A model generated the notes under the pieces. It made no database searches. It saw nothing but the letters and a program-made list of their open reading frames with translations, and was not told where the DNA came from. From a virus (Duplodnaviria; Caudoviricetes), in the IMG/VR virus record IMGVR_UViG_3300005512_004360, positions 1 to 24,149 of that record: 24,149 nt of DNA, one strand, 5' to 3'. A program made the translations under genes and the position numbers. Numbering within the stretch: the stretch's first letter is position 1; the number at the start of each line of letters is the position of its first letter. Shown here in pieces: positions 1,048 to 24,149 of the stretch.

Positions 1048-1593
1048 TCACGTAGCGATCACCGGCGGCGTCCCCGGCGAACCGGCACCTGGTCCCGCCA
1101 CCGAGGGAGGTGTTGACGGGCCGGACTCGACAACGACGAACGTCCCGTCCCCCACCGCCTCGAAGACGATAATTTCGCCCGGCTCCATCGGGTGATAAAC
1201 GAGTCCCGTGCCTGGAATGAGCCTCGCCACTCCAAGCGTGCTCGCCCCGGCTGAGTCGTTCCTGGCTGCGACTCTTGCACCCGCCTCAATGGTAACGGGA
1301 TCCGCCTCCCAAACCCTGATCATCGGCGAGGATGAAAGGGGGTCCGACATGGAAAGCACTGTGCCCACGTCGTCGGCGATAACCGACGTGATCGTATCAA
1401 AGCCCGTCGCCTCCCGACCCTCGGAAAAAGCTTCCGGCGCGTTGAGGTCCGGCGGCGTACCCGGTGAACCGGCACCCGATCCCGGCACCGCAGGCGGAGC
1501 ACCGGGCGAACCCGTCCCGGCCCCGGCCACACCGGGCGGCGTGCCCGGTGAACCGGCTCCGTTCGGAACCACTGCTGGAGGTGTGTCTGGCAT
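1048..1593 (-). CDS. Putative virion protein with 14-aa Pro/Gly repeats
   Basis: 181 aa; TPPxVxxxGAGSPG-type units, three at the N-terminus and one at the C-terminus; lies after the tail-tube-like gene. Confidence 0.65.
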   Translation of the reverse strand: MPDTPPAVVPNGAGSPGTPPGVAGAGTGSPGAPPAVPGSGAGSPGTPPDLNAPEAFSEGREATGFDTITSVIADDVGTVLSMSDPLSSSPMIRVWEADPVTIEAGARVAARNDSAGASTLGVARLIPGTGLVYHPMEPGEIIVFEAVGDGTFVVVESGPSTPPSVAGPGAGSPGTPPVIAT

Positions 1594-2938: not shown

Positions 2939-3552
2939 GCCGCCCTCCTTCCTGTGAGAAGTTCCCGCGCCCACGCATCCGCCGCGCCGAAAGCCGCCGC
3001 CTTGAAGCCCTCGTCACTCGGCAGCAGCGTCCGGTCTTGCTTCTGCATCACCTCGCGGCGCAGCCAGTAGGCCACCGTCCAGTGATCCGGATCATCCTTC
3101 GCGGAAAACATCAGCGCCGTGTGGCGACCACCCACCACCGCGAAAGTCAGCTCGCCACTGAAGTCACGCGCCCGAATCCCGTAGGTTCGACGATGCGCTG
3201 GGATCGCCAGATACATCCGACCACTCCCCGGCCGGATCACCAGATCGCGGAACGCCCGGCCCAGCCCCGTGATCGCCGGGATGATCACCACCGCCTCTTT
3301 CGAGCTGAAGGCGCTCATCACCATCGCCGCCGCCTTCCCGTGATGTCCGGTCGGCTTCGCGCCCAGCCCGGTCGCGGTCTTGTGCCGGTTCAGCCCGATC
3401 AGATATTCCCGCGTCAGCCGCTCCGCCTCGCCGGCCATCGAGCGATGCAGTCCGACCGGATTCGAGAACCCCGTGCGCAGCGCCTGCACGCGCTCATGGC
3501 CACGCTCCACGCCCGTCAGGTCCACCGGGATATGCAGCATCCGATCACTCAT
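2935..3552 (-). CDS. Putative virion morphogenesis/neck protein (Mu gpG-like)
   Basis: 205 aa directly after the MuF-like gene; 'VIRPGSGRMYLAIP' resembles the IrPk..k.LxiP motif of gpG-like proteins. Confidence 0.55.
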   Translation of the reverse strand: MSDRMLHIPVDLTGVERGHERVQALRTGFSNPVGLHRSMAGEAERLTREYLIGLNRHKTATGLGAKPTGHHGKAAAMVMSAFSSKEAVVIIPAITGLGRAFRDLVIRPGSGRMYLAIPAHRRTYGIRARDFSGELTFAVVGGRHTALMFSAKDDPDHWTVAYWLRREVMQKQDRTLLPSDEGFKAAAFGAADAWARELLTGRRAA

Positions 3553-4507
3553 CGCCGCCTCCTTCCCCGTAAGCGTCCTGCGCCTTCTTCAGCTCCGCTG
3601 CCAGTACCTTGTTGAAATCATAATTCCCCGGGGCATACGGATCGTCCGGATTCTCCGGCAGCGCGTCGGTCTCCCGCACGAAAGCTTCCAGCAATTCCCG
3701 GTCGCCATTCGTCAGCGCCATCCGCGTGCCAGGCATCACCACCTCGCCACGAATCACCTGCACCGGAGCACCCGACAGCCATTCGTCCACCGTCTCACCA
3801 TTCGGGCCGCGCACGTCCAGCGCACGCACCTCCCGCATCGGCACCTCCAGCCAGTTCTTCCCGGAGTTGAACGCGAACGGTGGATGATCCACATCCAGCG
3901 CGTCGTCGAAATTCGCGCTCCCCCCCAGCTCGCCCCAGCGTTCGTCGCCTTTGAAAGCGATGATCCGCCCCTCGTAAAGGGTTCCGCCCACCTGCGCCCA
4001 CCGCTCTTCCCAATCTCGTGGCACTCGCCGGTCCTCGAACCTCACCAACTCCCACGCCGGAAACTCCGCGATCCGATCATGCCCGCGCTGCTGCTGCGCC
4101 GCGCCCTGGATCAGCTCGCGCTGTGTCCGCACCACAAGCTCCAACCGCCGCGCACTGCTCAGGTCCTGGAGCGTCCCTTGGATCGCCGGCGGCACGCTGC
4201 CCGGCTCCGCATCCGGAAACCCACCCTCCGGCGTGTAATCTAGAACACGCAGAGTCTCCCGCAGCACATACCGCGCATCCGCATCGCTGAGTTCCCCCGC
4301 GATCATCTGGGCCACCACCTCCTTGAGCTTCGAGAGGAAACGCACGTTCGTCCCCCGCGCCAGGAACACCGACCGCGCCCGCACCTCCGCCGCCAGTTGA
4401 CGCAGCCCCGCCGTGTCCAGCTTCGTCGGCAGCAGCCCACGCTCGTTCGCGATCCTCAGTGCCCTGAGAATCGGGTCGTCGCCGGGTGCTGGTACGTCAA
4501 TCGCCAT
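3545..4507 (-). CDS. MuF-like (Mu gp30/F) head morphogenesis protein
   Basis: About 320 aa; RSVFLAR...FLSKLKE, RRLELVVRTQ, FPAWELVR...RRVPRDW and HPPFAFNSG match the MuF pattern; no long C-terminal toxin extension. Alternative TTG start at 4513. Confidence 0.7.
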   Translation of the reverse strand: MAIDVPAPGDDPILRALRIANERGLLPTKLDTAGLRQLAAEVRARSVFLARGTNVRFLSKLKEVVAQMIAGELSDADARYVLRETLRVLDYTPEGGFPDAEPGSVPPAIQGTLQDLSSARRLELVVRTQRELIQGAAQQQRGHDRIAEFPAWELVRFEDRRVPRDWEERWAQVGGTLYEGRIIAFKGDERWGELGGSANFDDALDVDHPPFAFNSGKNWLEVPMREVRALDVRGPNGETVDEWLSGAPVQVIRGEVVMPGTRMALTNGDRELLEAFVRETDALPENPDDPYAPGNYDFNKVLAAELKKAQDAYGEGGGDE

Positions 4508-4517
4508 CGTCAAACAT

Positions 4518-5361: not shown

Positions 5362-6288
5362 TCAGCTCAGCGTGATGCGGCGTCCGCTCGCCGCCGAGGT
5401 GACCTTGATGTCCTCAGACCAGTCCACGTAGTAGATGTCCGAGGCGTTGCGCTCCTCGCGGTATTCCCGCACCGAGTCGATCATCCCGGCATCCACCGAG
5501 AAGGTCTTCGCAAAGCTCGGGTCATACTGCGTCGGCGAGTCGTCCGCGTAGAAGATGAACACCTCCGCGCCCACGATGTTCGTCGCGGTCTTGGCAGCTC
5601 CCATCTTCTTCGAGTCGGCGCTCAGCACGCCCACCCGGATCTCCATGCTCGGGTTCAGCAGCATGCTCGCCGCCATCCCGGTGCTCACGCCCTTCTCGGT
5701 CACGCCGCTGGTCCGGTTGATCACACGCGGGTGATTCCGGAACACGCGCCACGCTCCCAGACCAAACACGATCCGGTTCGGCATCCGCCCGATCTCCGTG
5801 GCGATCGCCTCGATCTGGCTGTCGATCTCGTCGATCGGTTCCACCGAGCCGTCCACCGTGGACCACACCCCGATCGATCCGGTCGCCGCCTTGCCAGCCT
5901 TGATCAGGTCGAAGACCTTCTTCTCGTGGCTGTGGTGGCACGCACCGATCAGGTTGCTGATCTTCGCCTCCTGGAGGCGGCCCAGCCCGCGCTCGCCGGC
6001 CAGGTCGCGCTCGTGGTCGTCGATGGTCGTCTCCAGTCCCTGCGGCGTCGCATTGAAATACGGATCGCTCGCCAGGAACTCGATCCGGTTCCGAGGACCA
6101 CCAATCGCGCGATTGGTGTCGTAGATCTGGAAGTCGTTCTTCTCGTTGAACTGCTTGTATTGCCCGTGGGCGATACCCGTCGGAACGACCGGCGCGATGA
6201 ACTCGGCCAGGGCGCTCATTCTGTCCTGGGAAACCCCGGACGCGTAGTTGCTCAGATGAGCGTTTCGTGTGGCTGCTGAAGCAGGCAT
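5362..6288 (-). CDS. Major capsid protein
   Basis: 308 aa after the protease and decoration genes; LSNYA..., FIAPVVP, PNRIVFG...W..FRNHP motifs; strong leader (aaaggaacacaatacc ATG). Confidence 0.85.
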   Translation of the reverse strand: MPASAATRNAHLSNYASGVSQDRMSALAEFIAPVVPTGIAHGQYKQFNEKNDFQIYDTNRAIGGPRNRIEFLASDPYFNATPQGLETTIDDHERDLAGERGLGRLQEAKISNLIGACHHSHEKKVFDLIKAGKAATGSIGVWSTVDGSVEPIDEIDSQIEAIATEIGRMPNRIVFGLGAWRVFRNHPRVINRTSGVTEKGVSTGMAASMLLNPSMEIRVGVLSADSKKMGAAKTATNIVGAEVFIFYADDSPTQYDPSFAKTFSVDAGMIDSVREYREERNASDIYYVDWSEDIKVTSAASGRRITLS

Positions 6289-6747: not shown

Positions 6748-7185
6748 TCAGTTGAAGAGTTCGGGTTTGCGCTGCCGTGCCAGGTTCCATGCCCGGTCAT
6801 ACTTGCAGCCCTCGCGGTTACGGATGCCCTCCACCAGCTCGCGGCGCTCCGCCTCGCGGTTCGCCTCGGCCGTGGCGTCGTCGCCTCCCTCGGTCTTCTC
6901 GACCGGGGCAGGGGTGTTCGCACCGGCGCGGTTGTGGATCCGTTCGGCCGGAGTTTTTTCCGGCACCGGGAATGCCAGGATCTTCTCAAGTCCGCCCGCG
7001 CGGTTCTTGATCAGCTCTTCCTTCACCTCGTCGCGCTTGTCGGCGGGGATGCGGTCGGAGTAGCGGTTCATCACCGCCTCCGCTTCAGCGCCGGCCACCT
7101 GCTTCATCAGGTCGTCCAGCTTCGTCAGGATGTCGGCCTCGGTAGCCTCGGCGGACAGCCCCAGTTTCTCGGCGATTGCCTTCAT
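6748..7185 (-). CDS. Nested in-frame scaffold protein (Mu gpZ-like), internal start
   Basis: ATG 7185 (MKAIAEKLGL) is preceded by an A/C-rich tract (aaccaaaacgaagacacaaaac) like the leaders of the decoration, capsid and tube genes; Mu gene I has a nested Z. Confidence 0.65.
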   Translation of the reverse strand: MKAIAEKLGLSAEATEADILTKLDDLMKQVAGAEAEAVMNRYSDRIPADKRDEVKEELIKNRAGGLEKILAFPVPEKTPAERIHNRAGANTPAPVEKTEGGDDATAEANREAERRELVEGIRNREGCKYDRAWNLARQRKPELFN

Positions 7186-7707
7186 GTTTTGTGTCTTCGT
7201 TTTGGTTCCGTCCGCTTCCGGCGGAGTGCCGGATTCACGGTTCGAAATCGGTTTGCCGCCCCGGTTGTTAGGCCGGTTCGTGAATGCCAGACCGGCCAGC
7301 CGCAGCGGCCTCACCCGGCCGTCGCCGAGATCCTCCAGATCCTCCGGCGCGTATTCGGTCGTGAAAAATTTGTAGCGCCGGTTCTTCACCGCCGCCTCGC
7401 CCAGGTCGCTCACATCGATCCGGCCCCACAGCTCGCCGTCCCGATCCTCCAGCTCCTGGAGCCAGCCCATCGCCTCCGTCCGCTGGCTCAGGTCGTGGCT
7501 CAGATGGTCCGCATCCACCAGCAGCCCGGCCCAGTTCTCCCCGGCCTCCTCGCGCTCCGCATTGAAGCGGTTCACGATCGCCTCGCGAGCCGCCGCGTCG
7601 ATCAACTGCCGACGCCCCGGCCCCGCCGGATGCTCGCCGCTCACCTCGATCTGATACCAGCCGTCTTTCGCCGGTGCCTTGCGGTTGAAAATCGTCGCGT
7701 TCATCAT
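6748..7707 (-). CDS. Mu gpI-like prohead protease with C-terminal scaffold
   Basis: LLVDADH, EAMGW, GELWGRID, RYKFFTTEY and GLAFTNRP motifs of Mu-like proteases, followed by a helical scaffold region. Confidence 0.85.
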   Translation of the reverse strand: MMNATIFNRKAPAKDGWYQIEVSGEHPAGPGRRQLIDAAAREAIVNRFNAEREEAGENWAGLLVDADHLSHDLSQRTEAMGWLQELEDRDGELWGRIDVSDLGEAAVKNRRYKFFTTEYAPEDLEDLGDGRVRPLRLAGLAFTNRPNNRGGKPISNRESGTPPEADGTKTKTQNMKAIAEKLGLSAEATEADILTKLDDLMKQVAGAEAEAVMNRYSDRIPADKRDEVKEELIKNRAGGLEKILAFPVPEKTPAERIHNRAGANTPAPVEKTEGGDDATAEANREAERRELVEGIRNREGCKYDRAWNLARQRKPELFN

Positions 7708-8069
7708 TCGTCGTCGGTTGGTTTCTCGGTCAGCGCATCCACCATCATCATCGCCATCGCCTCCTCGAACTCCGGGTCCTCAAGAAGTCCCGCCCAGTCG
7801 ATTTCCAGCAGCGCCTTCGGATCTTCCACACCCGCTTCCAGCGCCTTGCCAAGCCGCTGCATGTTCGGTGCAGGGAGCGTGCGGGCGTCCAGCACCGCAT
7901 TCACCCGGTTCAGGATCCACCCCGCCTTGCGGTTCAGGATACCGGCGTCATCGTCGGGCTCCACGTCATCCGGGGTGGAGTCATGCAGCGCTTCCCAATC
8001 AGGAGATCCCGGCACCTGGTGGCGCTCGAAAAACTCGTCGCCCTGTTTCATGAGGTCTTCGATCTTCAT
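7704..8069 (-). CDS. Acidic 121-aa protein coupled to the portal-TopIB gene
   Basis: ATG 8069 overlaps the portal stop (ATGA) and its stop overlaps the protease start; two ILNR motifs. Confidence 0.75.
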   Translation of the reverse strand: MKIEDLMKQGDEFFERHQVPGSPDWEALHDSTPDDVEPDDDAGILNRKAGWILNRVNAVLDARTLPAPNMQRLGKALEAGVEDPKALLEIDWAGLLEDPEFEEAMAMMMVDALTEKPTDDE

Positions 8070-10255
8070 GCCGCCTTGTCGATTTTCGGTTTCTGTCCGG
8101 GCCGGTAAGGTTCGAACACCAGGGGGTGGATGTAGCTCTTCAGACTCATGTTCGCGTCGTTCCCAAGCTGGCGGCCCACCACGCGCCCCACGCGCTTTTG
8201 GAACTTCTTGAACTCCCGGTCCGTCGTCGGCAGTTCGCCACGCGCCGCGATCTTCGCCGCCGTCGCGTCCGCCAGCATCGTTCCGTTCCATGTCCGGAAA
8301 TCATGCACCTTGAACTTGTTACCGCTGATCCGCTTCAGGTAGTCGAGTGTTCCCGCCGCGTTCCCGCTGAAAATACGCTCCTCACCCGCCGCCTGCCGCG
8401 CCGCGATATGCCGCGCCAGCGTCCGGTCCTCGAAGCTGTGAAGCTGCCTCACGCCTTTCTTGCCCGTGAAGTCCAGGTGGACCTTGTCGCCATCCACCCG
8501 CGCATGCTCGGTCCGCAGATTGCTCGCGCCGAATGTCTCCACCTTGCCACCGCCGTCCTCTCCGCCATTGCGAAGCCCGGTGATCGAGATCATCCGCAGC
8601 TTCATCGCGTTGTCACGGTCCGGCCCGTCGCCCAGCATGTCCTCGTCGATCTTGGCTTGCAGCGTCGGCATCTCCTGGTGGAGCGCGCCGATCCGCGCAT
8701 ACTTCGCCGCCGCCTGCGACCTACCGTATTCCTCGGAGTAGAAGTACACCGTCTTTCCCTTCGCGTTCTTCGCCGTGCCCAGCAGGTCCGCACCCGGATC
8801 GTCCGTCACTTCCAGGTCGGTGAAAGCCGGGGCCACCTTCAACCGCTTCCGATCTTCATCCGTGCCCTTCCGCATCTCGCCGCGCTTCGCCTTCGTGCCC
8901 TTCGTCGGCGCACCGCCTGCCGTCCACCTTCCCCCGGTGTCCGATCCTTTCGGATCGCGCGGTTGCAGCGGATTGTATCTGTTCTCGATCCGCTCCTTCT
9001 CCGTGGCGTCCTTCGCGTCTTTGCGGTTCGAGTTCTCCGGTTCTTCCACCGGCGCGTCATCCAGCTCATACCCCGTCTTCTCCGCGATCCACTCGCGCCT
9101 CACCCGGTATCCGGCTTTGCTGAGGGAAGCCACATCCTTGACCACCTGCGCCGAGTCCGTCTCCTCGTTCGCCGCCAGTTCGAAATACGCCCACGCCCGC
9201 TCGCCCGGCGTCACTTGCCGCAGGATCTCCGCGTCCACCTGCGCCCGCAGGCACTCGGAAATCTCCGCCGCCTCCGCCCGCGCGATTTCCGCGAAGGTCT
9301 CGGCATGAGCGTTCCCTCCCAGCGTCCCGCTGCCGCTCTCGGCCAGCATCGTCAACTTGCCGCCGGTGCCACGCAAAACCAGTTGCTCGTCCTGATACTT
9401 CAGGTGATCGCGGAACGGATTGTTGCCCCGCGCTCCGTTGTCCACCGTCTTCACGTCCGAACCTCCCGGCAGCACGCCGCGCGCGTCGCTCACCGTCCGC
9501 TCGGCCATGTCCAGGTATTCGTCCTCCTTCTCCTTCGGCACGTTCTCCGGCATCACCAGGAACACCGCAGGGATGCCGTAGCTCTCGATGAAGCCGTCCC
9601 AGTCCTTTTGCGAAAGCCCCTTGCGCACGAAGCACACGATCGCCACCCGGTTGATCGGCCGGCTCACCTCGCGGATCACGAACCGCCCCTCCGCCACCGG
9701 CAGCCCCTTGGTCGCGCCGACCTTCGAGTCCGCGTTGTATTCCCAGCCGCCGTAAAGACCCTTCCTCACCCAGAACCACTGCTCCACCGGATCCAGCGCC
9801 ACCAACCGCCCCGCGCCATCCCACACCTTCTCCAGGTGCGTGAATCCCCGGAAGCTCGCGATCGCCAGAGCCTCGAAGGCCGCACTCAGATTACGGCATC
9901 CCTCGTAGTTCTCCCGCAGCGCTGCCTGCTGGATTTCCGCCACCCGCTTCTTGTCGTCCGGCACATCGTCCCGGACCTTGATGTCCCAGTCGAGCTGCTG
10001 GATCGCGCTGGTCCTGCGCTCCACCAGCGCTCCCAGCGTCGCGTCCTGCATTTCAATGAACCGGTAGGTCCATTGCAGATCTGCGAAAGCGCCGCGCTCG
10101 CCTTCTTCCAGCAGCGTGATCGCCCGCCGGATCGTCAGCCCGCGCAGCGGATTGTATTGGTCCCTCCACAGGTTTGCCGCCGCGATGTGAAAGCGGTATC
10201 CCGCCACCATCGCCGCGCGATTCATCAGAGACCCGAGCTTCCGCGTGAAATTCAT
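8066..10255 (-). CDS. Portal protein (Mu gp29/DUF935-like) fused to a C-terminal type IB DNA topoisomerase domain
   Basis: 729 aa from ATG 10255 (TGATG overlap with terminase). About 400 N-terminal aa carry portal motifs (DWDGFIESYGIP, GGKLT, GTLGGNAH). The C-terminal ~260 aa carry TopIB motifs: APAFTD, TGLRNG, TFGASNL, FTGKKG, HDFRTW, LGND, KSYIHP. Confidence 0.9.
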   Translation of the reverse strand: MNFTRKLGSLMNRAAMVAGYRFHIAAANLWRDQYNPLRGLTIRRAITLLEEGERGAFADLQWTYRFIEMQDATLGALVERRTSAIQQLDWDIKVRDDVPDDKKRVAEIQQAALRENYEGCRNLSAAFEALAIASFRGFTHLEKVWDGAGRLVALDPVEQWFWVRKGLYGGWEYNADSKVGATKGLPVAEGRFVIREVSRPINRVAIVCFVRKGLSQKDWDGFIESYGIPAVFLVMPENVPKEKEDEYLDMAERTVSDARGVLPGGSDVKTVDNGARGNNPFRDHLKYQDEQLVLRGTGGKLTMLAESGSGTLGGNAHAETFAEIARAEAAEISECLRAQVDAEILRQVTPGERAWAYFELAANEETDSAQVVKDVASLSKAGYRVRREWIAEKTGYELDDAPVEEPENSNRKDAKDATEKERIENRYNPLQPRDPKGSDTGGRWTAGGAPTKGTKAKRGEMRKGTDEDRKRLKVAPAFTDLEVTDDPGADLLGTAKNAKGKTVYFYSEEYGRSQAAAKYARIGALHQEMPTLQAKIDEDMLGDGPDRDNAMKLRMISITGLRNGGEDGGGKVETFGASNLRTEHARVDGDKVHLDFTGKKGVRQLHSFEDRTLARHIAARQAAGEERIFSGNAAGTLDYLKRISGNKFKVHDFRTWNGTMLADATAAKIAARGELPTTDREFKKFQKRVGRVVGRQLGNDANMSLKSYIHPLVFEPYRPGQKPKIDKAA

Positions 10256-12267
10256 CAGAACACACTCCTTTCCGCGTTGCGCGTCCGACGGCCGCCGGGG
10301 CGGGGGGCGAATCCGAATCGGCTGGAAACCACCGGATGCCCCGCGACCAGCTCCGCCAGTGCCGAATATCCGTCGGCCAGCAGCAGGTGGTTTTCGCACT
10401 CGTCGACATACTCGCCCTTGTCGTCCTTCTCCGATCCCGTGACCAGGTGCGCTTCCAGTGTTTCCACGATCCTCGGCGATCCCGGCACCCGCTGCGGCAG
10501 CCGCATCACCGGATCCTCGATCAGCTTGCGATCCGCCGTCACCCGCACCACCTGCTCCTTCGGAGTCAGGAACTCGTTCACTGCGCGGTTGATCAGATCG
10601 AACCGGCTGACCTGGATGATCGGATAGTACTTCGTGAATCCGACCTGCGGATCCTCGCCGATCTTCTGCTCGATCCCGCCGCCGGCTTTCTTCGTGAACT
10701 GAACCACCGCGCACACGAGGTTCTCCCAGCGCTTGTTAGGTCCGTCCCAGACCAGCCCACCGGGAAAGGTGATCCGCTTCTTCTCGGCCTCGGTCACATG
10801 CGGCCACTCGATCCCTTCCAAACCGTTCAGCCGGTAGGACAGCGATCGCGCCTGGTCGACTGCCGGATGCGCGTCGATGAAGAGCGCTCCGAGGTTTAAC
10901 CGGTAGAATAGCGTCTCCACCCGGTCCACCAGCGTGCCCAGGGGAATCTCTTCCGCCCACAGCGCGCGCTTCACGAACTCGCTCTCAACCTCCCGCCCGT
11001 AGAACCAGCACTTGTTCCCGGTATCCACTCCGCCGAATCCACGGCAGCCGTCCTTCAGGCTCAACCGCATGTCGTAAGCCTGCTCGACCGTGCGCGAGCG
11101 CGTGATGATCTCCGGCGTGATCGCCTGCGAGCTGTTGCGCGGCAGCGCCAGCACGTCGCAGTAGAAAACCTCCATCGACTCGGGATCGGCCACCGCGTCC
11201 TGCCACCGGCTGACCGGTTGGCTCAGGCTGATCGCCGCCACCGCCACCTGCGCCACACGGATCGAGAACCGCCGCATCTTGTTGCGCTCCGGCCGCCGCG
11301 CCTGGATCACCGGCTTGCTCCGGTCGAGTTCCTTCCCGGTCTCCGGATCCGCCACATAGAAATGACCTCCCGGCTCGTAATCGAAGATCTCGGGATTCTC
11401 CGCTGGCCCGCGCCGGAAGTCGCCGGTCATCGTCAGCTGCGGATCGGTCGGCTTCGGCACTCCATCGATCGCCAGGCGGCAAACCTGCGGCCAGCTTTCC
11501 TCAATGCAGATCAGCCGGTCCTCTCCCGGCACCTGGAAAAGCTGCACCTCCTGGTTGCCCGCCTTGAACTGCTTGTGCTGCCCGCGCCCATGCACCCGCT
11601 GCGTGCCGATGCTACACTTCAGCCGCAGGTCGGAGGCCGACATCCGGCCGGTGAGGAACTTCGCGCGCTTGTCGTTGATGTCGTCCTTCTCGTCCTCCAT
11701 CGCGATGTCCATGGAGAACGACGTCGGAATCTTGCCCATCCCCCGGATCATCCCGAAGGCCTTGCGCTTGCCGTCCGTCATCATGAACGCGCCTTTCCGG
11801 TTCAGCGCCTTCTTGCCCTTCGCATCCTCGAAGGCACCGAGCGTCATCATGTCGGACAGACCTTCAATCGGATCGATCACCTCGCCGCGCAGCTTGGTAT
11901 CCACGATGCCCTCCACCAGGTCGTCGTCCGGCAGATAGTAACCCCAGTTCCAGAATTTGCAGCTCGTCGCATACACGCCCACGCAGAGAGCGAGGACCGT
12001 CTTGCCCCATTGTGCGCCACCGCAGATGTCAAATACCGCGTCTTGCAGCGGTTCTCCGGTGTAGCTGCCGAAAATCTCGTCGAACCGATCCACGATGTGC
12101 TCAAGCACCGGACGGCCTTCGAAAGAGTAGGGGACGAAATACCCGCCCGAGGTTTTCACCTGGACATGCTTCAGCAGGAACTCCCGCAGACTGTTCGCCT
12201 TCGGCCCCACCACGCGGATTTCCGACTCGTCAAACCGCTCACTCAGCCTGTCCAGCGCCCCGCTCAT
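10255..12267 (-). CDS. Terminase large subunit (lambda GpA-like ATPase motifs)
   Basis: Walker A-like GGAQWGKT, YYLP, Walker B MEDEKD, nuclease GVDTG; directly upstream of the portal. Start is ATG 12267 (670 aa) or in-frame GTG 12414 overlapping the upstream stop (719 aa). Confidence 0.85.
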   Translation of the reverse strand: MSGALDRLSERFDESEIRVVGPKANSLREFLLKHVQVKTSGGYFVPYSFEGRPVLEHIVDRFDEIFGSYTGEPLQDAVFDICGGAQWGKTVLALCVGVYATSCKFWNWGYYLPDDDLVEGIVDTKLRGEVIDPIEGLSDMMTLGAFEDAKGKKALNRKGAFMMTDGKRKAFGMIRGMGKIPTSFSMDIAMEDEKDDINDKRAKFLTGRMSASDLRLKCSIGTQRVHGRGQHKQFKAGNQEVQLFQVPGEDRLICIEESWPQVCRLAIDGVPKPTDPQLTMTGDFRRGPAENPEIFDYEPGGHFYVADPETGKELDRSKPVIQARRPERNKMRRFSIRVAQVAVAAISLSQPVSRWQDAVADPESMEVFYCDVLALPRNSSQAITPEIITRSRTVEQAYDMRLSLKDGCRGFGGVDTGNKCWFYGREVESEFVKRALWAEEIPLGTLVDRVETLFYRLNLGALFIDAHPAVDQARSLSYRLNGLEGIEWPHVTEAEKKRITFPGGLVWDGPNKRWENLVCAVVQFTKKAGGGIEQKIGEDPQVGFTKYYPIIQVSRFDLINRAVNEFLTPKEQVVRVTADRKLIEDPVMRLPQRVPGSPRIVETLEAHLVTGSEKDDKGEYVDECENHLLLADGYSALAELVAGHPVVSSRFGFAPRPGGRRTRNAERSVF

Positions 12268-18144: not shown

Positions 18145-18403
18145 GGACATTCCGGACGACGACGCCCTCGCCGAACTCCTGGCCGATCGCCTGATCGACC
18201 GGCTCAGTCACGACCCCGGCGATGACCACCTGCGTCACCGCCTCCTCATCGCCGCCGGCCTGCCCTCCACACCACCGCCGCCCTTCCTCTCCCACGACCG
18301 CCTCGCCACCCGCCTCTCACTCTCACCCACCCACATCCGCCGCATCGAATCCCGCGCCCTCCTCCGCCTCCGCACCGCACTCCAAACATCACCCGACCGA
18401 TGA
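18131..18403 (+). CDS. Sigma-70 region 4-like HTH protein
   Basis: 90 aa from ATG 18131; LSHDRLATRLSLSPTHIRRIESRALLRLR. Confidence 0.7.
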   Translation: MPTTEDIPDDDALAELLADRLIDRLSHDPGDDHLRHRLLIAAGLPSTPPPPFLSHDRLATRLSLSPTHIRRIESRALLRLRTALQTSPDR

Positions 18404-18648
18404 ACGCCACCAAGCCAGCACCGCCCACCCAATGCGACCTCATCCTCGCCGAGCTGCGCCGGTGCGAAGGCCAGTGGGTCTCCATGATCATCCTCCACCA
18501 AGTCTCCGGATCCATGGCCGTCCACTCCCGCATCGCCGAACTCCGCGGCCACGGCCACACCATCGAGCAACACTCCAAGCGCGTCGGCCGCATCCAGCAT
18601 TCCTCCTACCGCCTCATCCCCGGCGAAACCCAACCCCTCATGCTCTAA
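18400..18648 (+). CDS. Small winged-helix DNA-binding protein
   Basis: QCDLILAEL...AVHSRIAELRGHGHTIE...YRL; ATGA overlap. Confidence 0.7.
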   Translation: MNATKPAPPTQCDLILAELRRCEGQWVSMIILHQVSGSMAVHSRIAELRGHGHTIEQHSKRVGRIQHSSYRLIPGETQPLML

Positions 18649-18649
18649 C

Positions 18650-18672
18650 GGAGCGCCGATTTTCAAATCGGC
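18650..18672 (+). repeat. GGAGC plus hairpin (REP-like variant)
   Basis: GGAGC GCCGATT TTCA AATCGGC directly after a stop codon. Confidence 0.65.
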
Positions 18673-18708
18673 ATCATTCCCCAACCGCAAACCACCACCA
18701 CCACCTCC

Positions 18709-18918
18709 ATGCCCCACCTCATCATCGCCACCCTCGCCACCGCCGCAAAGGACACCGACACCTTCAGCATCGGCGTCTTCCTCGCCGCCGCCTTCCTCTG
18801 CTCCCTGATCGGCTACGCATTCCGAGCGACCCTCGAACGCCCCAAAATCCGCCAAGCATTTCTCGACGGCAAAAACATCGGAGCCCGCGAAACCGAAGAC
18901 CGATTCACCACCCACTGA
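18709..18918 (+). CDS. Small membrane protein
   Basis: 69 aa; TM segment FSIGVFLAAAFLCSLIGYAF. Confidence 0.6.
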   Translation: MPHLIIATLATAAKDTDTFSIGVFLAAAFLCSLIGYAFRATLERPKIRQAFLDGKNIGARETEDRFTTH

Positions 18919-18957
18919 TCACTGATCACTCGGCACTCAGCACTCCTCACCATTCCC
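18913..18957 (+). repeat. CACT-heptamer repeat spanning stop to start
   Basis: CACTGAT CACTGAT CACTCGG CACTCAG CACTCCT CAC CATTCCC ATG. Confidence 0.8.
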
Positions 18958-19245
18958 ATGAACCACATCGTCCCCGAAATCATCGACGAACAGCGCGTCG
19001 CCGAACTCCTCGCCCACGCCGGCGACATCATCGAGCCTCGCCAGTCCGACCCCGCTGCGGCGATCCACATCCACGGCTACGAGATGGCCATGCAAACCCA
19101 CGACCTCCTCCAAGAAGTCTTCATGGGCCTCTGCACGCGAGCCCTCGGGAACACCGCCAAAGCCGCCCGCGTCGTCCGCACCCGCGACTACCAATCCCAG
19201 CTCGCCGCCCACCACCTCGACATGCTCGACCGCACCCCCGCCTGA
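18958..19245 (+). CDS. Hypothetical early protein
   Basis: 95 aa; operon-consistent codon usage. Confidence 0.6.
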   Translation: MNHIVPEIIDEQRVAELLAHAGDIIEPRQSDPAAAIHIHGYEMAMQTHDLLQEVFMGLCTRALGNTAKAARVVRTRDYQSQLAAHHLDMLDRTPA

Positions 19246-19272
19246 TCACTCACCACTTTCCACTTCCTACCC

Positions 19273-20019
19273 ATGCCAGACTTCACCAACTCCCCGCTCA
19301 AAAAAGCCGCCGACCGCGCCTCCGCCAAGACCATCGACGGCAAGGCCGAGATCGTCACCACCGCGCAGACCCTCGACGCCGTCGCCCGCACCCTCGAATC
19401 CGAGCGCGACCAAGTCATCCAGCACGAGGACGCCTTCAAGGACGCCACCCTCCCGCGCTACCTCCGCATGGGCCTCGCATGCCTCCAGGCCCAGCAGGTT
19501 TTCACCGCTGCCACCCCGAATCCAACCGGACGGAACCAGCACTCGAAAGAGGTTGTGTCCACCGTGGACACAACCTCCACGGAAGATCCGAAAACCTTCG
19601 CCGACTGGATCGAGCGCGCCGTCCCCTGGCTCAAGCGTCCCACCGCTTACCGCTACGCCGATGCCGCCCGGGGCCTCGGCCTCGATCACGGCTCCGAGCA
19701 GAAGCAGGTCGACGCCCTCCTCAAGAAACTCCGCGCCGAGCACGCCCGCAAGAACCTGCCCAAGCCCTCCCTTGCCCTCCTCGTCCACAAGGCCCGCGAA
19801 GGCGAGCCCGACCCGGACGAAGAGACCGACGCCCCCGATCCAACACCCGAACAACGCGCCGGTGAGGCCCGCGTCCAGATCCACGAATTCCAGGAGAGCT
19901 GGCAAAAGTTCATCCGCACCGGCGACCTCGACCACCTCACCGCCGACGACCTCAAGCCCCTCGCCACCTTCCTGGAAGACGAACTCGACCGCATCAAGAA
20001 GCTCATCAAGTCCGCCTGA
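19273..20019 (+). CDS. DUF3102-like protein upstream of the transposase
   Basis: LRMGLACL...FADWIE...LKRPTAYRY pattern and position before MuA, as in many Mu-like phages. Confidence 0.6.
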   Translation: MPDFTNSPLKKAADRASAKTIDGKAEIVTTAQTLDAVARTLESERDQVIQHEDAFKDATLPRYLRMGLACLQAQQVFTAATPNPTGRNQHSKEVVSTVDTTSTEDPKTFADWIERAVPWLKRPTAYRYADAARGLGLDHGSEQKQVDALLKKLRAEHARKNLPKPSLALLVHKAREGEPDPDEETDAPDPTPEQRAGEARVQIHEFQESWQKFIRTGDLDHLTADDLKPLATFLEDELDRIKKLIKSA

Positions 20020-20025
20020 CCCGAA

Positions 20026-20047
20026 GGAGCGCGCGACGCCGTCGCGC
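20026..20047 (+). repeat. GGAGC plus hairpin (REP-like variant)
   Basis: GGAGC GCGCGAC GCC GTCGCGC, 6 nt after a stop codon. Confidence 0.65.
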
Positions 20048-20061
20048 CCCGCAACCCCGGC

Positions 20062-20096
20062 CATTCACCATTCACTCCTCACCATTCACCATTCCC
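20062..20096 (+). repeat. CATTCAC heptamer repeat x5 abutting the transposase ATG
   Basis: CATTCAC CATTCAC TCCTCAC CATTCAC CATTCCC ATG. Confidence 0.8.
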
Positions 20097-22232
20097 ATGC
20101 TCACCATCACCACCCCGGACATGACATCCGACCGCTGGATCGCCATCCCACGCGACCATCGCAACGAGATCCGCGTCATGCTCGACAAGTTTGCCCAGGC
20201 CCCGTCCCGCGGCATCACCGGGTGGTTCAAGCGCACCTCCGCCGATCTCGGCATCTCCTACTCATCGCTCCGCGACAAGTACTACGCCCTCCGGGATTCC
20301 GGCGGGGATTGGACCGTCCTCATCGACGAACGCCGCATCGCCGCCGCATCACGCAGCCGCACAAGGAGTCCTCGATTCATCCACTACCTCCTCAAACTCG
20401 TCACCGAGAACAAGCGCAAGAGCCGCCCCGCCTTCAAAGAACTCCGCCGCCTCTGGCGCATCCGGGATCAAGTCATCCCCGGATACGAAGACTGGCCCGA
20501 CTGGCCACGCCTCCCCGAAGGATGGAGCGACCGCAACCTTGCCGACATCGTCGCCCGCGAACTCCCCAAGGCCGTCCGCCAATCCATCCGCGTCGGCACC
20601 TCATCCAAGACCAACCAATATCTCCCCACCGTCCTCACCAGCCGCGTCGACCTCTGGCCCGGTGCCGTCATTCAGCTCGACGACCAATGGCATGACAACT
20701 GGGTCACCATCGGCACCGGCAAGCGCCAACAACTCTGCCGCGTCCTCGAACTCGGCGCGCTCGATCTCTTCTCCGGCCACCGCTTCGAATGGGGAGCCAA
20801 GCCCCGCCGCCGCCGGGACGATGGCACCACCGAGAACATCAATGGCCGCGATGCCCGACTCTTCCTCGCCGCCATCGCCCACCGCCACGGCTTCGCACCG
20901 CGCGGATCCACGCTCATGGTCGAGCACGAAACCATGTCCGTCTCCGAGGACATCGAGCGCGTCCTCTACGATGCCTCGGGCGGATGGTTCCGCGTCGACC
21001 GCCAGCCCATCGAAGGCAAACAGGCTGCCCTAACAGGTTTCTGGAACGGCACCGAAGGCGGAAACTTCCGCGCCAAGGCATGCCTCGAATCCATCCACAA
21101 CCTCATCCGCAACGACCTCGGCCGCCTGCCCATGCAGACCGGCTCATTCTCCTCCGGCATCAAAGGACCCGTCACCACCGACCGACAGGTCAAATACGTC
21201 GAGCGCATCATGCGCGACGTCCTGAAGAACGTCCCGCACCGCGCCCACCTGCTCCAGCTTCCCACCATCGACTTCTACACCCAGTTCGAGCCCTTCCTGC
21301 GCGACTACTATCACTTCGGCCTCGCCCTCCGCACCGACCACGCCATGGAAGGCTGGAAAGAACTCGGCCACGAGGTCATCGAATACACCACCGCTCCAGG
21401 CTCCGACCACTTCCTCGACCAAGACGCCTTCCTCGAACTCGCCGAGACCACCCGCGCCATCATCACCGCCGAGGCCCGGCGCGAGCCCGCCAAGTGGCAG
21501 CGCCGCCGCTACCTCTCACCCCTCGAAGTCTGGAACCGCCGCCAGCCATTCACACCACTCGGCGCACCCGTCATCTGCGAGATACTCACCCGCGACCTCG
21601 CCCGCGAAGTCAGCTCCGCACGCGGCTACCTCACCTTCCGGGACGACGAATTCGCGCCCGACGGCCTCGTCTATGAATCCCGATTCATCTCCGGCCCTCG
21701 CAAAGGTCGCGAAATCCATCACGGAGAAAAGGTCCTCATGTTCGCGAACCCCTTCGACGATACTACGGCAATCGCCGTAGATGCCCAGGAACGCTTCCTC
21801 GGCGAGCTGCCACTTTACAAACGCATCATCCCCATCGAGCCCGACGCCTTCGGATCGACCGCCCCCTTCGACAGCCGCCCGGACATCCGCAGCCAGGCGC
21901 TCAAAGAAGCCGCCGGCCACAAGCACCACCGCATCGCCGACATCCTCGAACCCGCCCGCATCACCCATGCAGGCAGCGTGCAAGCAGCCCGCGACCTCCG
22001 CGAGCACAACGCCGACATCCTCGACCCCAATCACCCCGTCACCCCCGGGGAAATCGCCGCCCACGCCCAAGCGCGCGGAGCCAAGGCCGCCGCCACCCGC
22101 GTCTCCAACCGCGCCGCCGCCACCGCCGCCCGCCAGGACACCGATGGCGTCCTGGATGCGTGGTCCGATCCATCCACCGAAACCGCCGAAACCGAAAGCA
22201 CCGAACTCCCCGAAGACAACCCCTTCATCTAA
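20097..22232 (+). CDS. MuA-like DDE transposase
   Basis: 711 aa; N-terminal HTH (ADLGISYSSLRDKYY); core IQLDDQWHD...ALDLFSG...LMVEHE...GNFRAKACLESIHN; SPLEVW; followed by a MuB-like ATPase. Confidence 0.85.
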   Translation: MLTITTPDMTSDRWIAIPRDHRNEIRVMLDKFAQAPSRGITGWFKRTSADLGISYSSLRDKYYALRDSGGDWTVLIDERRIAAASRSRTRSPRFIHYLLKLVTENKRKSRPAFKELRRLWRIRDQVIPGYEDWPDWPRLPEGWSDRNLADIVARELPKAVRQSIRVGTSSKTNQYLPTVLTSRVDLWPGAVIQLDDQWHDNWVTIGTGKRQQLCRVLELGALDLFSGHRFEWGAKPRRRRDDGTTENINGRDARLFLAAIAHRHGFAPRGSTLMVEHETMSVSEDIERVLYDASGGWFRVDRQPIEGKQAALTGFWNGTEGGNFRAKACLESIHNLIRNDLGRLPMQTGSFSSGIKGPVTTDRQVKYVERIMRDVLKNVPHRAHLLQLPTIDFYTQFEPFLRDYYHFGLALRTDHAMEGWKELGHEVIEYTTAPGSDHFLDQDAFLELAETTRAIITAEARREPAKWQRRRYLSPLEVWNRRQPFTPLGAPVICEILTRDLAREVSSARGYLTFRDDEFAPDGLVYESRFISGPRKGREIHHGEKVLMFANPFDDTTAIAVDAQERFLGELPLYKRIIPIEPDAFGSTAPFDSRPDIRSQALKEAAGHKHHRIADILEPARITHAGSVQAARDLREHNADILDPNHPVTPGEIAAHAQARGAKAAATRVSNRAAATAARQDTDGVLDAWSDPSTETAETESTELPEDNPFI

Positions 22233-22237
22233 CCACC

Positions 22238-23293
22238 ATGCATCCGAGCAATACCACCAACCGCCACAAAAAAGGCACCAAAAGCTGGCGCATCGACCGC
22301 GCCGCCGTCACCGCCTGGACCGCCACCCTCAGCGACGACGAACGTGCCGTCATCCTCTGGCTCTTCGACTACGCCGCCTCGCGGGACCTCTCCACTGAGT
22401 CTCTCGGCAAGGCACTCAAGCAAGAAAGCGGCAAGCCCTACTCCGCCGACTCCGTCTATCAGGTCATGACCGGCCGGCGGGATCCCGGCCAGCTCGCCAA
22501 CTTCCTCGCAGCAGCAGCCGACCTCCAGCGCATCGAGCGCGAGCGCGAGAAGATCACCCGCATCGGATTCGTCGAAACCAACCTCACTCGCAAGATATTC
22601 CAGATTGCGGACGCGACCCGGAACTTCGGCAAGATCGGCATCATCACCGGCGAGAGCCACACCGGGAAAACCACCGCGCTCCTCGAATACCGCGCCCGGA
22701 ACAACCACGGTGCCACCCATTACATCCGCATGTGCTCCGGCGGTGCCAAGAGCACCTTCATGCGCCGCTTCGCCGCCATGCTCAACATCGCCACCCGTGG
22801 CAACGACTACGTCATCGGCGACCGCATCTTCGACTGCTTCGACCAGCGCATGCTCCTAATCGTCGATGAAGTCCACCAGTGCCTCATGCGCAAGACCGGC
22901 GTCCACACCCTCGAATGGTTGCGTGAACTCCACGACGTCAGCGGTTGCGGCATCCTGCTCTCCGCCACGCCCGTCTTCGAGAAAGCGTTCACCTCCGCCG
23001 ATACCGCCGGCATCCTCCGCCAGATCGGCATGCGCAAACTCATCCATGCCACCCTTCCGGCCCGGCCCACTGCCGCCAACCTCGCCGACTTCGCCCGCCA
23101 CTTCGGCCTCCCTCCCGCCACCGGCGAAGCGCTCGATCTCCAGAAAGCCGTCATCGGCGAGGACTCCCTCGGCCGCTGGGTCTCCATCCTCGAAGGAGCC
23201 AGCCGCGTCGCCGCCAAACAGCAGCAGCCCCTCGACTGGAACCACGTCCTCAAATCCCACTCCGCGCTTGTCGCGCTCGAAGACCCAAAATGA
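22238..23293 (+). CDS. MuB-like AAA+ transposition ATPase
   Basis: 351 aa from ATG 22238; Walker A GESHTGKT, Walker B LLIVDE, LEWLRELHD. Confidence 0.9.
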   Translation: MHPSNTTNRHKKGTKSWRIDRAAVTAWTATLSDDERAVILWLFDYAASRDLSTESLGKALKQESGKPYSADSVYQVMTGRRDPGQLANFLAAAADLQRIEREREKITRIGFVETNLTRKIFQIADATRNFGKIGIITGESHTGKTTALLEYRARNNHGATHYIRMCSGGAKSTFMRRFAAMLNIATRGNDYVIGDRIFDCFDQRMLLIVDEVHQCLMRKTGVHTLEWLRELHDVSGCGILLSATPVFEKAFTSADTAGILRQIGMRKLIHATLPARPTAANLADFARHFGLPPATGEALDLQKAVIGEDSLGRWVSILEGASRVAAKQQQPLDWNHVLKSHSALVALEDPK

Positions 23294-23508
23294 CCCCCGA
23301 CCAGAAAACCATCCTCCAAGCCTGGGAATCCGGCGTCCTCGCCGGCGGAGCCCTCGCCGATGCCGTCAATGCCCTCGGCCAAGCCGATTCCCGCGACGCC
23401 CGCTCAAACGCCCTCGGCCTCCTCGACGAAGCTCGCCGCCGCCACAACACCGCCAACTCCCTCATCACCACCATCACCGACAAGCTCTCCGCCTCCCTCC
23501 AGATGTAG
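23290..23508 (+). CDS. Hypothetical 72-aa protein
   Basis: ATGA overlap with the MuB-like stop. Confidence 0.55.
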   Translation: MTPDQKTILQAWESGVLAGGALADAVNALGQADSRDARSNALGLLDEARRRHNTANSLITTITDKLSASLQM

Positions 23509-23519
23509 CCACCCAATAA

Positions 23520-23541
23520 GGAGCGCGGCTTTCCAAGCCGC
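23520..23541 (+). repeat. GGAGC plus hairpin (REP-like variant)
   Basis: GGAGC GCGGCTT TCC AAGCCGC shortly after a stop codon. Confidence 0.65.
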
Positions 23542-23566
23542 ATCAACCCAAGCCAATCAATCAGCC

Positions 23567-23899
23567 ATGATCACCACCACCAGCATCACCACCGCCGAAC
23601 GCGACCTTGCAAACCGCGTCATCACCCGCATCGCCCGCAGCGCCAACGTCACCCCCGCTCGCATCACCAGCCGCCACCGCGATCGCCGCACCGCCCGCGC
23701 CCGCCAACTCTGCATGGCGCTCCTGCGCACCGCGAGCGATCTAACCTTTGAGCAGATCGGCGAACTCTTCCACGGCCGCGACCACGGCACCGTCATCCAC
23801 GCCTGCCGCGTCGTCGCCGACCTCCGCCGCACCGACCTCGCCTACAACCGCTTCTTCACCTTCGTCCTAGCCGAACTCACCCGCACCACTGATCACTGA
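23567..23899 (+). CDS. Stand-alone DnaA C-terminal (domain IV) HTH protein
   Basis: 110 aa; ARARQLCMALLR...LTFEQIGELFHGRDHGTVIHAC. Confidence 0.85.
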   Translation: MITTTSITTAERDLANRVITRIARSANVTPARITSRHRDRRTARARQLCMALLRTASDLTFEQIGELFHGRDHGTVIHACRVVADLRRTDLAYNRFFTFVLAELTRTTDH

Positions 23900-23921
23900 T
23901 CACTCGGCACTCGGCACTCCC
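23887..23921 (+). repeat. CACT-heptamer repeat x5 spanning stop to start
   Basis: CACTGAT CACTGAT CACTCGG CACTCGG CACTCCC ATG. Confidence 0.85.
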
Positions 23922-24149
23922 ATGATCCTCAACCCCACCAGAATCCGCATGAGCACCAAGACCAAAACCAAGACAGCCCCCCGCAAGCGAGCCCCCCGCA
24001 AGACCACCGCAGACGCCGAGCAGAAGAAGCTCTGGAAGCGCGAACTCCGCGACATGGAACGCAGCCTCAAGCGCTCACAGGCCGAAACAGCCAAGGAGAT
24101 ACGCCGCCACCAGCGCGTCATCGAAAAGCTATCCGCCCAGCAAATCATC
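23922..24149 (+). CDS. Basic hypothetical protein, truncated at window edge
   Basis: Open from ATG 23922 (or 23949) to the end of the window: MSTKTKTKTAPRKRAPRK... Confidence 0.55.
   Translation, partial: MILNPTRIRMSTKTKTKTAPRKRAPRKTTADAEQKKLWKRELRDMERSLKRSQAETAKEIRRHQRVIEKLSAQQII

Follow-up and report, generated by a model that had tools for sequence, protein, structure and literature searches.

The viral sequence IMGVR_UViG_3300005512_004360 (24,149 nucleotides, hereafter the window) carries on its minus strand, at 8066..10255, a gene that joins a Mu gp29-type portal protein and a type IB topoisomerase (TopIB) in one polypeptide (P0001). Translation of the window gave 729 codons with zero internal stops. 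An AGGAG sequence lies 9 nucleotides 5' of the ATG, which overlaps the terminase stop codon (TGATG), and the stop codon of the fusion gene in turn overlaps the following ATG (ATGA). Pfam placed Portal_Mu (PF06074) at amino acids (aa) 63-395 (E 2.6e-43, over the cut-off) and Topoisom_I (PF01028) at aa 514-684 (E 6e-17, 62.2 bits versus a cut-off of 23.7), and homologous fusions occur in other records. The portal core (aa 1-398; 9062..10255) is followed by a charged linker that is predicted to be disordered (aa 399-426; 8978..9061) and ends in the putative prohead-protease site I423-E-N-R426 (8989-8978). Next come a leader tag of the form Y-N-P-x-Q-P-R...G-R-W (aa 427-454; 8894..8977) and the TopIB itself, comprising an N-terminal beta domain and the catalytic core (aa 455-729; 8069..8893).

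The Mu gp29-type assignment of the core is based on the PF06074 match, on its portal fold and on the location of the gene between those of the terminase and the prohead protease, a gene order that is also found in Verrucomicrobia loci. The core further matched phrog_113 portal (E 1.6e-30), and its 120 nearest relatives, which are 407-839 aa long, are 51-73% identical to it over aa 1-410. We assume, by analogy with JBD30 (PMC11445458), that the portal would form a dodecamer at the capsid vertex. The sequence L-M-N-R at aa 10-13 may mark a short propeptide.

To the C-terminal region (aa 426-729), phmmer assigned three matches in the PDB at E<=0.01, every one of them a TopIB, and the enzyme of Deinococcus radiodurans was the best (2f4q, E 7.5e-25). 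Counted along the printed alignment, R562 (8572), K599 (8461), R654 (8296), N699 (8161) and Y708 (8134) align with R137, K174, R239, N280 and Y289 of 2f4q, which we take to be the catalytic pentad of that enzyme. An earlier note on this DNA had claimed an R-K-R-H/N-Y pentad, which is indeed present in register, and all motifs quoted there were found in the sequence. The pentad is invariant in alignment A1, and R-K-R-[N/D]-Y is kept in 34 of 34 aligned TopIB domains (28 with Asn, 6 with Asp), an alignment that leaves out duplicates and fragments P0141, P0144, L010, L012 and L017. In the poxvirus pentad, His takes the place of Asn. The alignment to 2f4q begins at its residue 43 and strands at 479-506 have a high predicted local distance difference test score (pLDDT), which identifies the N-terminal beta domain; PF21338 gave no Pfam match on P0001 but does match relatives. 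We also considered a tyrosine recombinase or integrase identity and rejected it, as the best matches were TopIBs and integrases were absent among the Pfam matches, the PDB sequence matches and the Foldseek matches shown.

An AlphaFold2 model built from an 11-sequence alignment (mean pLDDT 71.5, predicted TM-score 0.43) consists of two folded parts with a low-confidence stretch between them. The pLDDT lies mostly at 80-93 in the TopIB blocks and below 50 at 392-440, including the linker (392-427). Foldseek ranked 2f4q and 3m4a first and second, followed by the JBD30 and Mu portals and, at ranks 6-8, by variola TopIB-DNA complexes with a root-mean-square deviation of 2.9-3.4 A over ~260 columns. 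The claim of the earlier note that one open reading frame (ORF) encodes a Mu-type portal and an intact TopIB is therefore borne out by the single frame, the Pfam and PDB matches, these structural matches and the recurrence described below.

Nonsynonymous and synonymous substitution rates (dN and dS) of the TopIB were 0.32 and 1.58 against L010 and 0.62 and 1.85 against L006, and dS was saturated against L003. By such sequence measures the domain is evidently under selection. Its GC content at third codon positions (GC3) is 0.84 compared to 0.86 in the portal, and the domain is basic (50 K/R versus 38 D/E). Its nearest ESM Atlas clusters (386, 146 and 106 members) are 94-100% viral, with Uroviricota as the commonest group.

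A search for further architectures that combine portal and TopIB, as the earlier note had suggested, returned 10 Mu-type fusions from other records. Among 16 TopIB relatives of 400-1276 aa, PF06074 was found on these 10 and the HK97-type portal family PF04860 on 4, while 2 had other multidomain architectures; of 8 shorter relatives, one more carries PF06074 and one has a portal end as judged by eye. Because 10 Mu-type portal-TopIB proteins exist in other records, misassembly is very unlikely. In addition, 5,692 bases across the junction are 100% identical in contig L009, which may derive from the same reads as the window.

The TopIB has moved among unrelated head proteins. TopIBs that are 57-68% identical to that of the window sit on portals only 21-24% identical to the window portal (P0003, P0004, P0005, P0007 and P0008; alignments over 336-390 aa). 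The TopIB tree groups two HK97-portal fusions among four that have Mu-type portals (support 98/96); it was midpoint-rooted with no cellular outgroup and carries no claim on the direction of transfer. In L006, the TopIB is fused to a portal_3 portal. In L007 and L016, it is part of NUDIX-methylase-S78 protease polyproteins, and it lies inside proteins of 1,035-3,813 aa in L008, L011 and L015, which contain LPD or ART-PolyVal domains (LPD22/37/38 among them), and in L013, which is without them. In L001, the TopIB gene sits between MuF and the scaffold gene. The leader tag, in this or a variant form, precedes the TopIB in all 19 listed portal-TopIB fusions as well as some other cargoes, and has no Pfam match. 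The polyproteins L007:6327-11900 and L016:2588-6259 combine TopIB, NUDIX, an N6/N4 methylase and the S78 prohead protease, and K-A/K-S motifs recur between their modules.

The C-terminal slot of the portal is variable. A TopIB is present on only one of the 120 nearest portals. The other tails comprise 72 short ones with a helical end module alone, 28 with a ParB-like domain and 19 other long tails; 8 of 18 scanned other long tails matched PBECR1, 2 or 3 at E<=0.003, one of them over the curated cut-off. The helical end module has no Pfam match. We use the ParB-like label tentatively, after two ESM Atlas clusters with ParB_N (13%) and ParBc_2 (57%); Pfam gave no match. On the portal-core FastTree, the four tail labels change 29 times, compared to 44.1 times when shuffled, and the sister of the window portal is the TopIB-less P0018 (support 98). 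By these comparisons, the TopIB is evidently a mobile payload and not part of the portal machine: an enzyme domain on a head protein, exchangeable between lineages, as in portal-fused effectors.

We also observed that the portals of Verrucomicrobia transposable prophages (P0018-P0136; L020-L028) are polymorphic as a group, with a core, xxNR, an optional ParB-like, PBECR-like or unknown domain, xxN and the helical end module, the order of which varies. The ParB-like domain in the 28 portals is 136 aa long (L023:2561-2968), and its ESM Atlas neighbours are viral clusters, two of them with ParB-type families.

A short motif marks the module borders of these proteins. The Mu I-type prohead protease/scaffold of the window (6748..7707, minus strand; PF10123, E 8.8e-17) contains eight [ILVM]xNR motifs in 319 aa; two each are found in the portal and in the ORF at 7704, and six in the other 21 ORFs (5,114 aa). 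The two portal copies are at aa 10 and at aa 423, the latter immediately N-terminal to the TopIB leader. In the relatives, 112 of 119 tails have the motif within 70 residues past the portal core, versus 9 of 595 core windows and a mean of 5.75 shuffled tails (maximum 14 in 200 runs), and xxN recurs where cargo and end modules join. The proteases of related loci carry 3-8 such motifs (9 of 9 loci). Furthermore, the residue before the leader tag follows the head type: it is Asn in 12 of the 14 Mu-type fusions and Asp in the single portal_3 fusion, and all 4 HK97-type fusions have a Lys within 1-3 residues. The HK97 protease cuts after Lys. From this motif pattern, I423-E-N-R426 is likely a prohead-protease cut site that would free the TopIB from the dodecamer; a cut after N425 would, by calculation, yield fragments of ~48 and ~33 kDa. 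The prohead protease of SPN3US cuts portal and ejection proteins at a short motif (PMC10052503).

The 121-aa ORF that is ATGA-coupled to the TopIB stop (7704..8069, minus strand) begins with an acidic peptide (aa 1-42; 14 D/E, 3 K/R) and contains two I-L-N-R motifs and a helical module. The earlier note described portal and TopIB, and overlooked both this ORF and the putative cut site. The C-terminal half of the ORF matches the tail at the C-terminus of P0018 (E 4.9e-8, compared to 0.003 for the best of 50 shuffles), and the helical module had no match to the pooled profile of end-module tails. The simplest history would be the insertion of a TopIB and acidic-ORF cassette between portal and end module, by which the end module was left on the downstream ORF. 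Among nine distinct loci in which the TopIB ends its ORF, a similar acidic ORF follows in six (window, L001, L003, L006, L012 and L017). With leave-one-out profiles among 5,726 segments, the window peptide was recovered by the profile of the five other loci (E 2.8e-6), as was that of L003 (4e-4), and L006 and L017 recovered each other. No such peptide was found in 6 polyprotein loci. Since an acidic partner is encoded beside a basic DNA-binding enzyme, the peptide may inhibit the TopIB. In L003:2258-2740, the acidic peptide is fused to another C-terminal domain than in the window, which suggests that it, too, moves as a module.

The element is a transposable phage, because a transposase, a MuB-like AAA protein, the Mu I protease and gp36 are present. 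The transposase and MuB-like AAA gene (20097..23293, plus strand) matched the phrog_310 transposase (E 7e-12) and AAA_22 (E 1.8e-11), and the transposase had no PDB match at E<=1. The large terminase subunit is encoded at 10255..12264 (minus strand; phrog_675, E 7.9e-22), with a start codon that we chose inside a longer ORF, and the major capsid protein at 5362..6288 (minus strand; phrog_1005, E 4.4e-36). Verrucomicrobia are the likely host group, since the portal relatives lie in Verrucomicrobia records (by record name; 9 of 9 genome loci). A MuF-like gene at 3545-4513 (minus strand; weak PF04233 match, E 0.05) follows gp36 and is separate from the portal, likewise in related Verrucomicrobia loci. 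An ORF at 1048-1593 (minus strand), immediately after the likely tail tube gene, has three to four G-x-G-S-P-G-T-P-P repeats. Positions 18222-24149 hold a plus-strand early operon that is strongly skewed in C and A. A very long, GC-rich open frame there (18222-19865) runs across several short genes that look real, and is itself probably spurious.

Based on these comparisons, we consider it fairly probable that the TopIB is mobile capsid cargo, which is loaded on the portal, released by the prohead protease and ejected together with the genome. In line with this, the other TopIB carriers are also head proteins, namely the portal_3 portal, the S78 protease polyprotein, the LPD/ART-PolyVal proteins and the product of the gene between MuF and scaffold. 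The C-terminus of a portal protein forms the crown as a general rule. In JBD30, the portal crown remains inside the capsid (PMC11445458). Because of this position, up to 12 TopIB domains would be built into each prohead as a swappable payload at the portal C-terminus, and the earlier note had already placed the domain inside the head. The phage's own prohead protease would then likely cut at I-E-N-R and release the ~33-kDa fragment, which would leave with the genome and relax DNA in the newly infected cell. We infer TopIB activity, cleavage, packaging and ejection. There is precedent in T4, whose virions can be built with GFP fused to the portal C-terminus and which brings 20-200 packaged enzymes into cells (PMC9026906), and portal-fused PBECR, 2H and InPase domains have been proposed to be injected (PMC5512222).

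The weakest step is the purpose of relaxation. Most likely, the enzyme would act as a swivel, without ATP, while the incoming genome is first transcribed, or would keep supercoiled DNA from host defences. Cascade is an example of a supercoiling-dependent defence. In vaccinia, the type I topoisomerase acts in early transcription (PMC12188299). The acidic peptide from the coupled gene would hold the TopIB inactive in the cell that makes the virions, in which supercoiled DNA is required by a transposable phage. A TopIB relaxes supercoils only and cannot add them. The dependence of Mu replication on supercoiling by gyrase (PMC3562280) speaks against a role in promoting transposition and in favour of holding the enzyme in check. 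Departure with the genome, the second scenario of the earlier note, fits the comparative evidence, and the enzyme would not aid the supercoiling that Mu replication needs.

Several observations weigh against a role as ejected cargo. Some copies of the motif are located in folded domains, among them the protease's own catalytic domain, and in the major capsid protein, so that it cannot be a pure cut-site signal. The Asn is absent from P0009 and L003, and the tail of the nearest portal, P0018, is without the motif. The acidic ORF was not found after the TopIB in L005, L010 and L019 of the nine loci with a terminal TopIB, and the leave-one-out profiles were marginal for L001 (E 0.14) and failed for L012. 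The TopIB also stands alone, away from the head module, in L005 and in three cultured phages (BS162P1, Lu11 and RHph_N28_1), so that TopIBs of phages are not necessarily cargo. Transposition, which depends on supercoils, could suffer if the incoming genome were relaxed, and the proposal assumes that a 33-kDa domain passes through the phage tail.

Instead, the enzyme, whether still tethered or already released, might work within the prohead as a swivel against the twist that arises during DNA packaging, and be dispensable after infection. Relief of torsion during packaging was also raised in the earlier note. The crown-end position adjoins the entering DNA, the ~50-residue low-confidence linker gives reach, and enzymes packaged in T4 heads stay active and mobile (PMC9026906). 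We regard this as unlikely, since 119 of the 120 nearest portals manage without a TopIB, the slot is shared with nuclease-like or ParB-like domains, and closely related TopIBs are found on HK97-type and portal_3 portals, protease polyproteins and LPD polyvalent proteins. HK97-type, portal_3 and LPD-protein carriers do not share Mu's packaging mode. Another improbable account is that the portal gene is merely a convenient carrier with late, high expression, the TopIB being cut off and lost or being active in the cell that makes the virions, at the stage of late transcription and replicative transposition. Such a role would be compatible with the stand-alone phage TopIBs in non-head regions, and scaffold fragments cut at such motifs normally exit the prohead (PMC11445458). 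However, the carrier in close relatives is nearly always a head-internal protein with an inward-facing terminus and the conserved tag, a plain late gene would do without fusion, and a free relaxing activity opposes the supercoiling required by Mu replication.

A third possibility is a polymorphic toxin of the MuF kind, in which the virion delivers the TopIB against non-lysogenic competitors or co-infecting elements, by relaxing their DNA or leaving covalent breaks in it, with the acidic ORF as immunity protein. MuF toxins resemble the fusion in that the C-terminal enzyme of a head protein varies and a small ORF comes next (Jamet et al. 2017, PMC5576092). They differ in that their carrier is MuF, while here it is a PF06074 portal with a separate MuF-like gene, and the word topoisomerase occurs 0 times in the text of PMC5576092. 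We consider a toxin very improbable: the pentad is wild-type, hence religation should be normal; toxins evolve fast, whereas the TopIB is better conserved than the proteins that carry it; the polyprotein loci yielded no acidic peptide; and killing the infected cell is ill-suited to a phage growing there. Finally, an assembly artefact or a dead passenger domain is hardly credible even if L009 shares the reads of the window, given ten further fusions of the Mu type and four of the HK97 type, drawn from several sources, intact pentads throughout the 34 domains, dN well below dS and matching GC3.

Among known systems, the portal- and MuF-fused effectors and phage polyvalent proteins (Iyer et al. 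2017, PMC5512222) are similar in that an enzyme is carried on a portal or MuF protein in the head module and is proposed to be packaged and injected. PBECR fills the same slot in relatives of the window portal, and TopIB also occurs in LPD/ART-PolyVal proteins. The cargo described there comprises PBECR, 2H, InPase, RelA/SpoT and others; in the main text, the word topoisomerase appears only in a reference title, and the supplements may list such an architecture. The D. radiodurans TopIB (2f4q/3m4a), the best match in sequence and structure, shares the minimal two-domain fold and R-K-R-N-Y; it is ~29% identical, whereas the present enzyme is phage-borne and fused to a structural protein. The poxvirus virion TopIB is likewise small, a close structural fit, encapsidated and used in early transcription (PMC12188299). 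It is, however, a free protein in the core of a eukaryotic virus with its own RNA polymerase, while the window encodes a portal fusion of a tailed phage. Jumbo phages (Lu11, Motura, PaBG and phiRSL1; Iyer et al. 2021, PMC7824862) also encode tyrosine-recombinase-fold topoisomerases I, which differ in being 23-26% identical, ~560-600 aa long, without a portal fusion and outside the head module in the two records examined. As a side observation, the cultured Bacteroides phage BS162P1 encodes a 254-aa TopIB (L019:1827-2591) that keeps R-K-R-N-Y and is seemingly without the N-terminal domain.

The automatic protein name "phage gp29-like protein/DNA topoisomerase IB" exists at the Joint Genome Institute. 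Our literature search, which left most subscription papers outside its range, turned up no description of a TopIB fused to a portal or packaged by a phage. Effectors on portals and free-standing TopIBs of phages are already known; what is unexpected here is a TopIB as portal-borne cargo enzyme.

In its widest form, the proposal is that many tailed phages, forming a large group with few cultured members, inject an active TopIB that strips supercoils in the first minutes of infection, thereby blunting supercoiling-dependent defence or host transcription. The enzyme would be paired with an acidic peptide inhibitor, and the mobile cassette would join portals, proteases and polyvalent proteins via protease site and tag. 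We hold this to be doubtful as a whole. The repeated recruitment of TopIB onto three portal families says that its function is selected. A portal family with a motif at every module border, together with Luteolibacter hosts in culture, would offer a natural plug-in system for loading ~12 enzyme copies per head, and a small TopIB-inhibiting peptide would be a useful reagent and a possible handle on the little-understood bacterial TopIBs. If the cargo role holds, the particles of tailed phages, like those of poxviruses, contain a topoisomerase, and DNA topology at entry would be under phage control.

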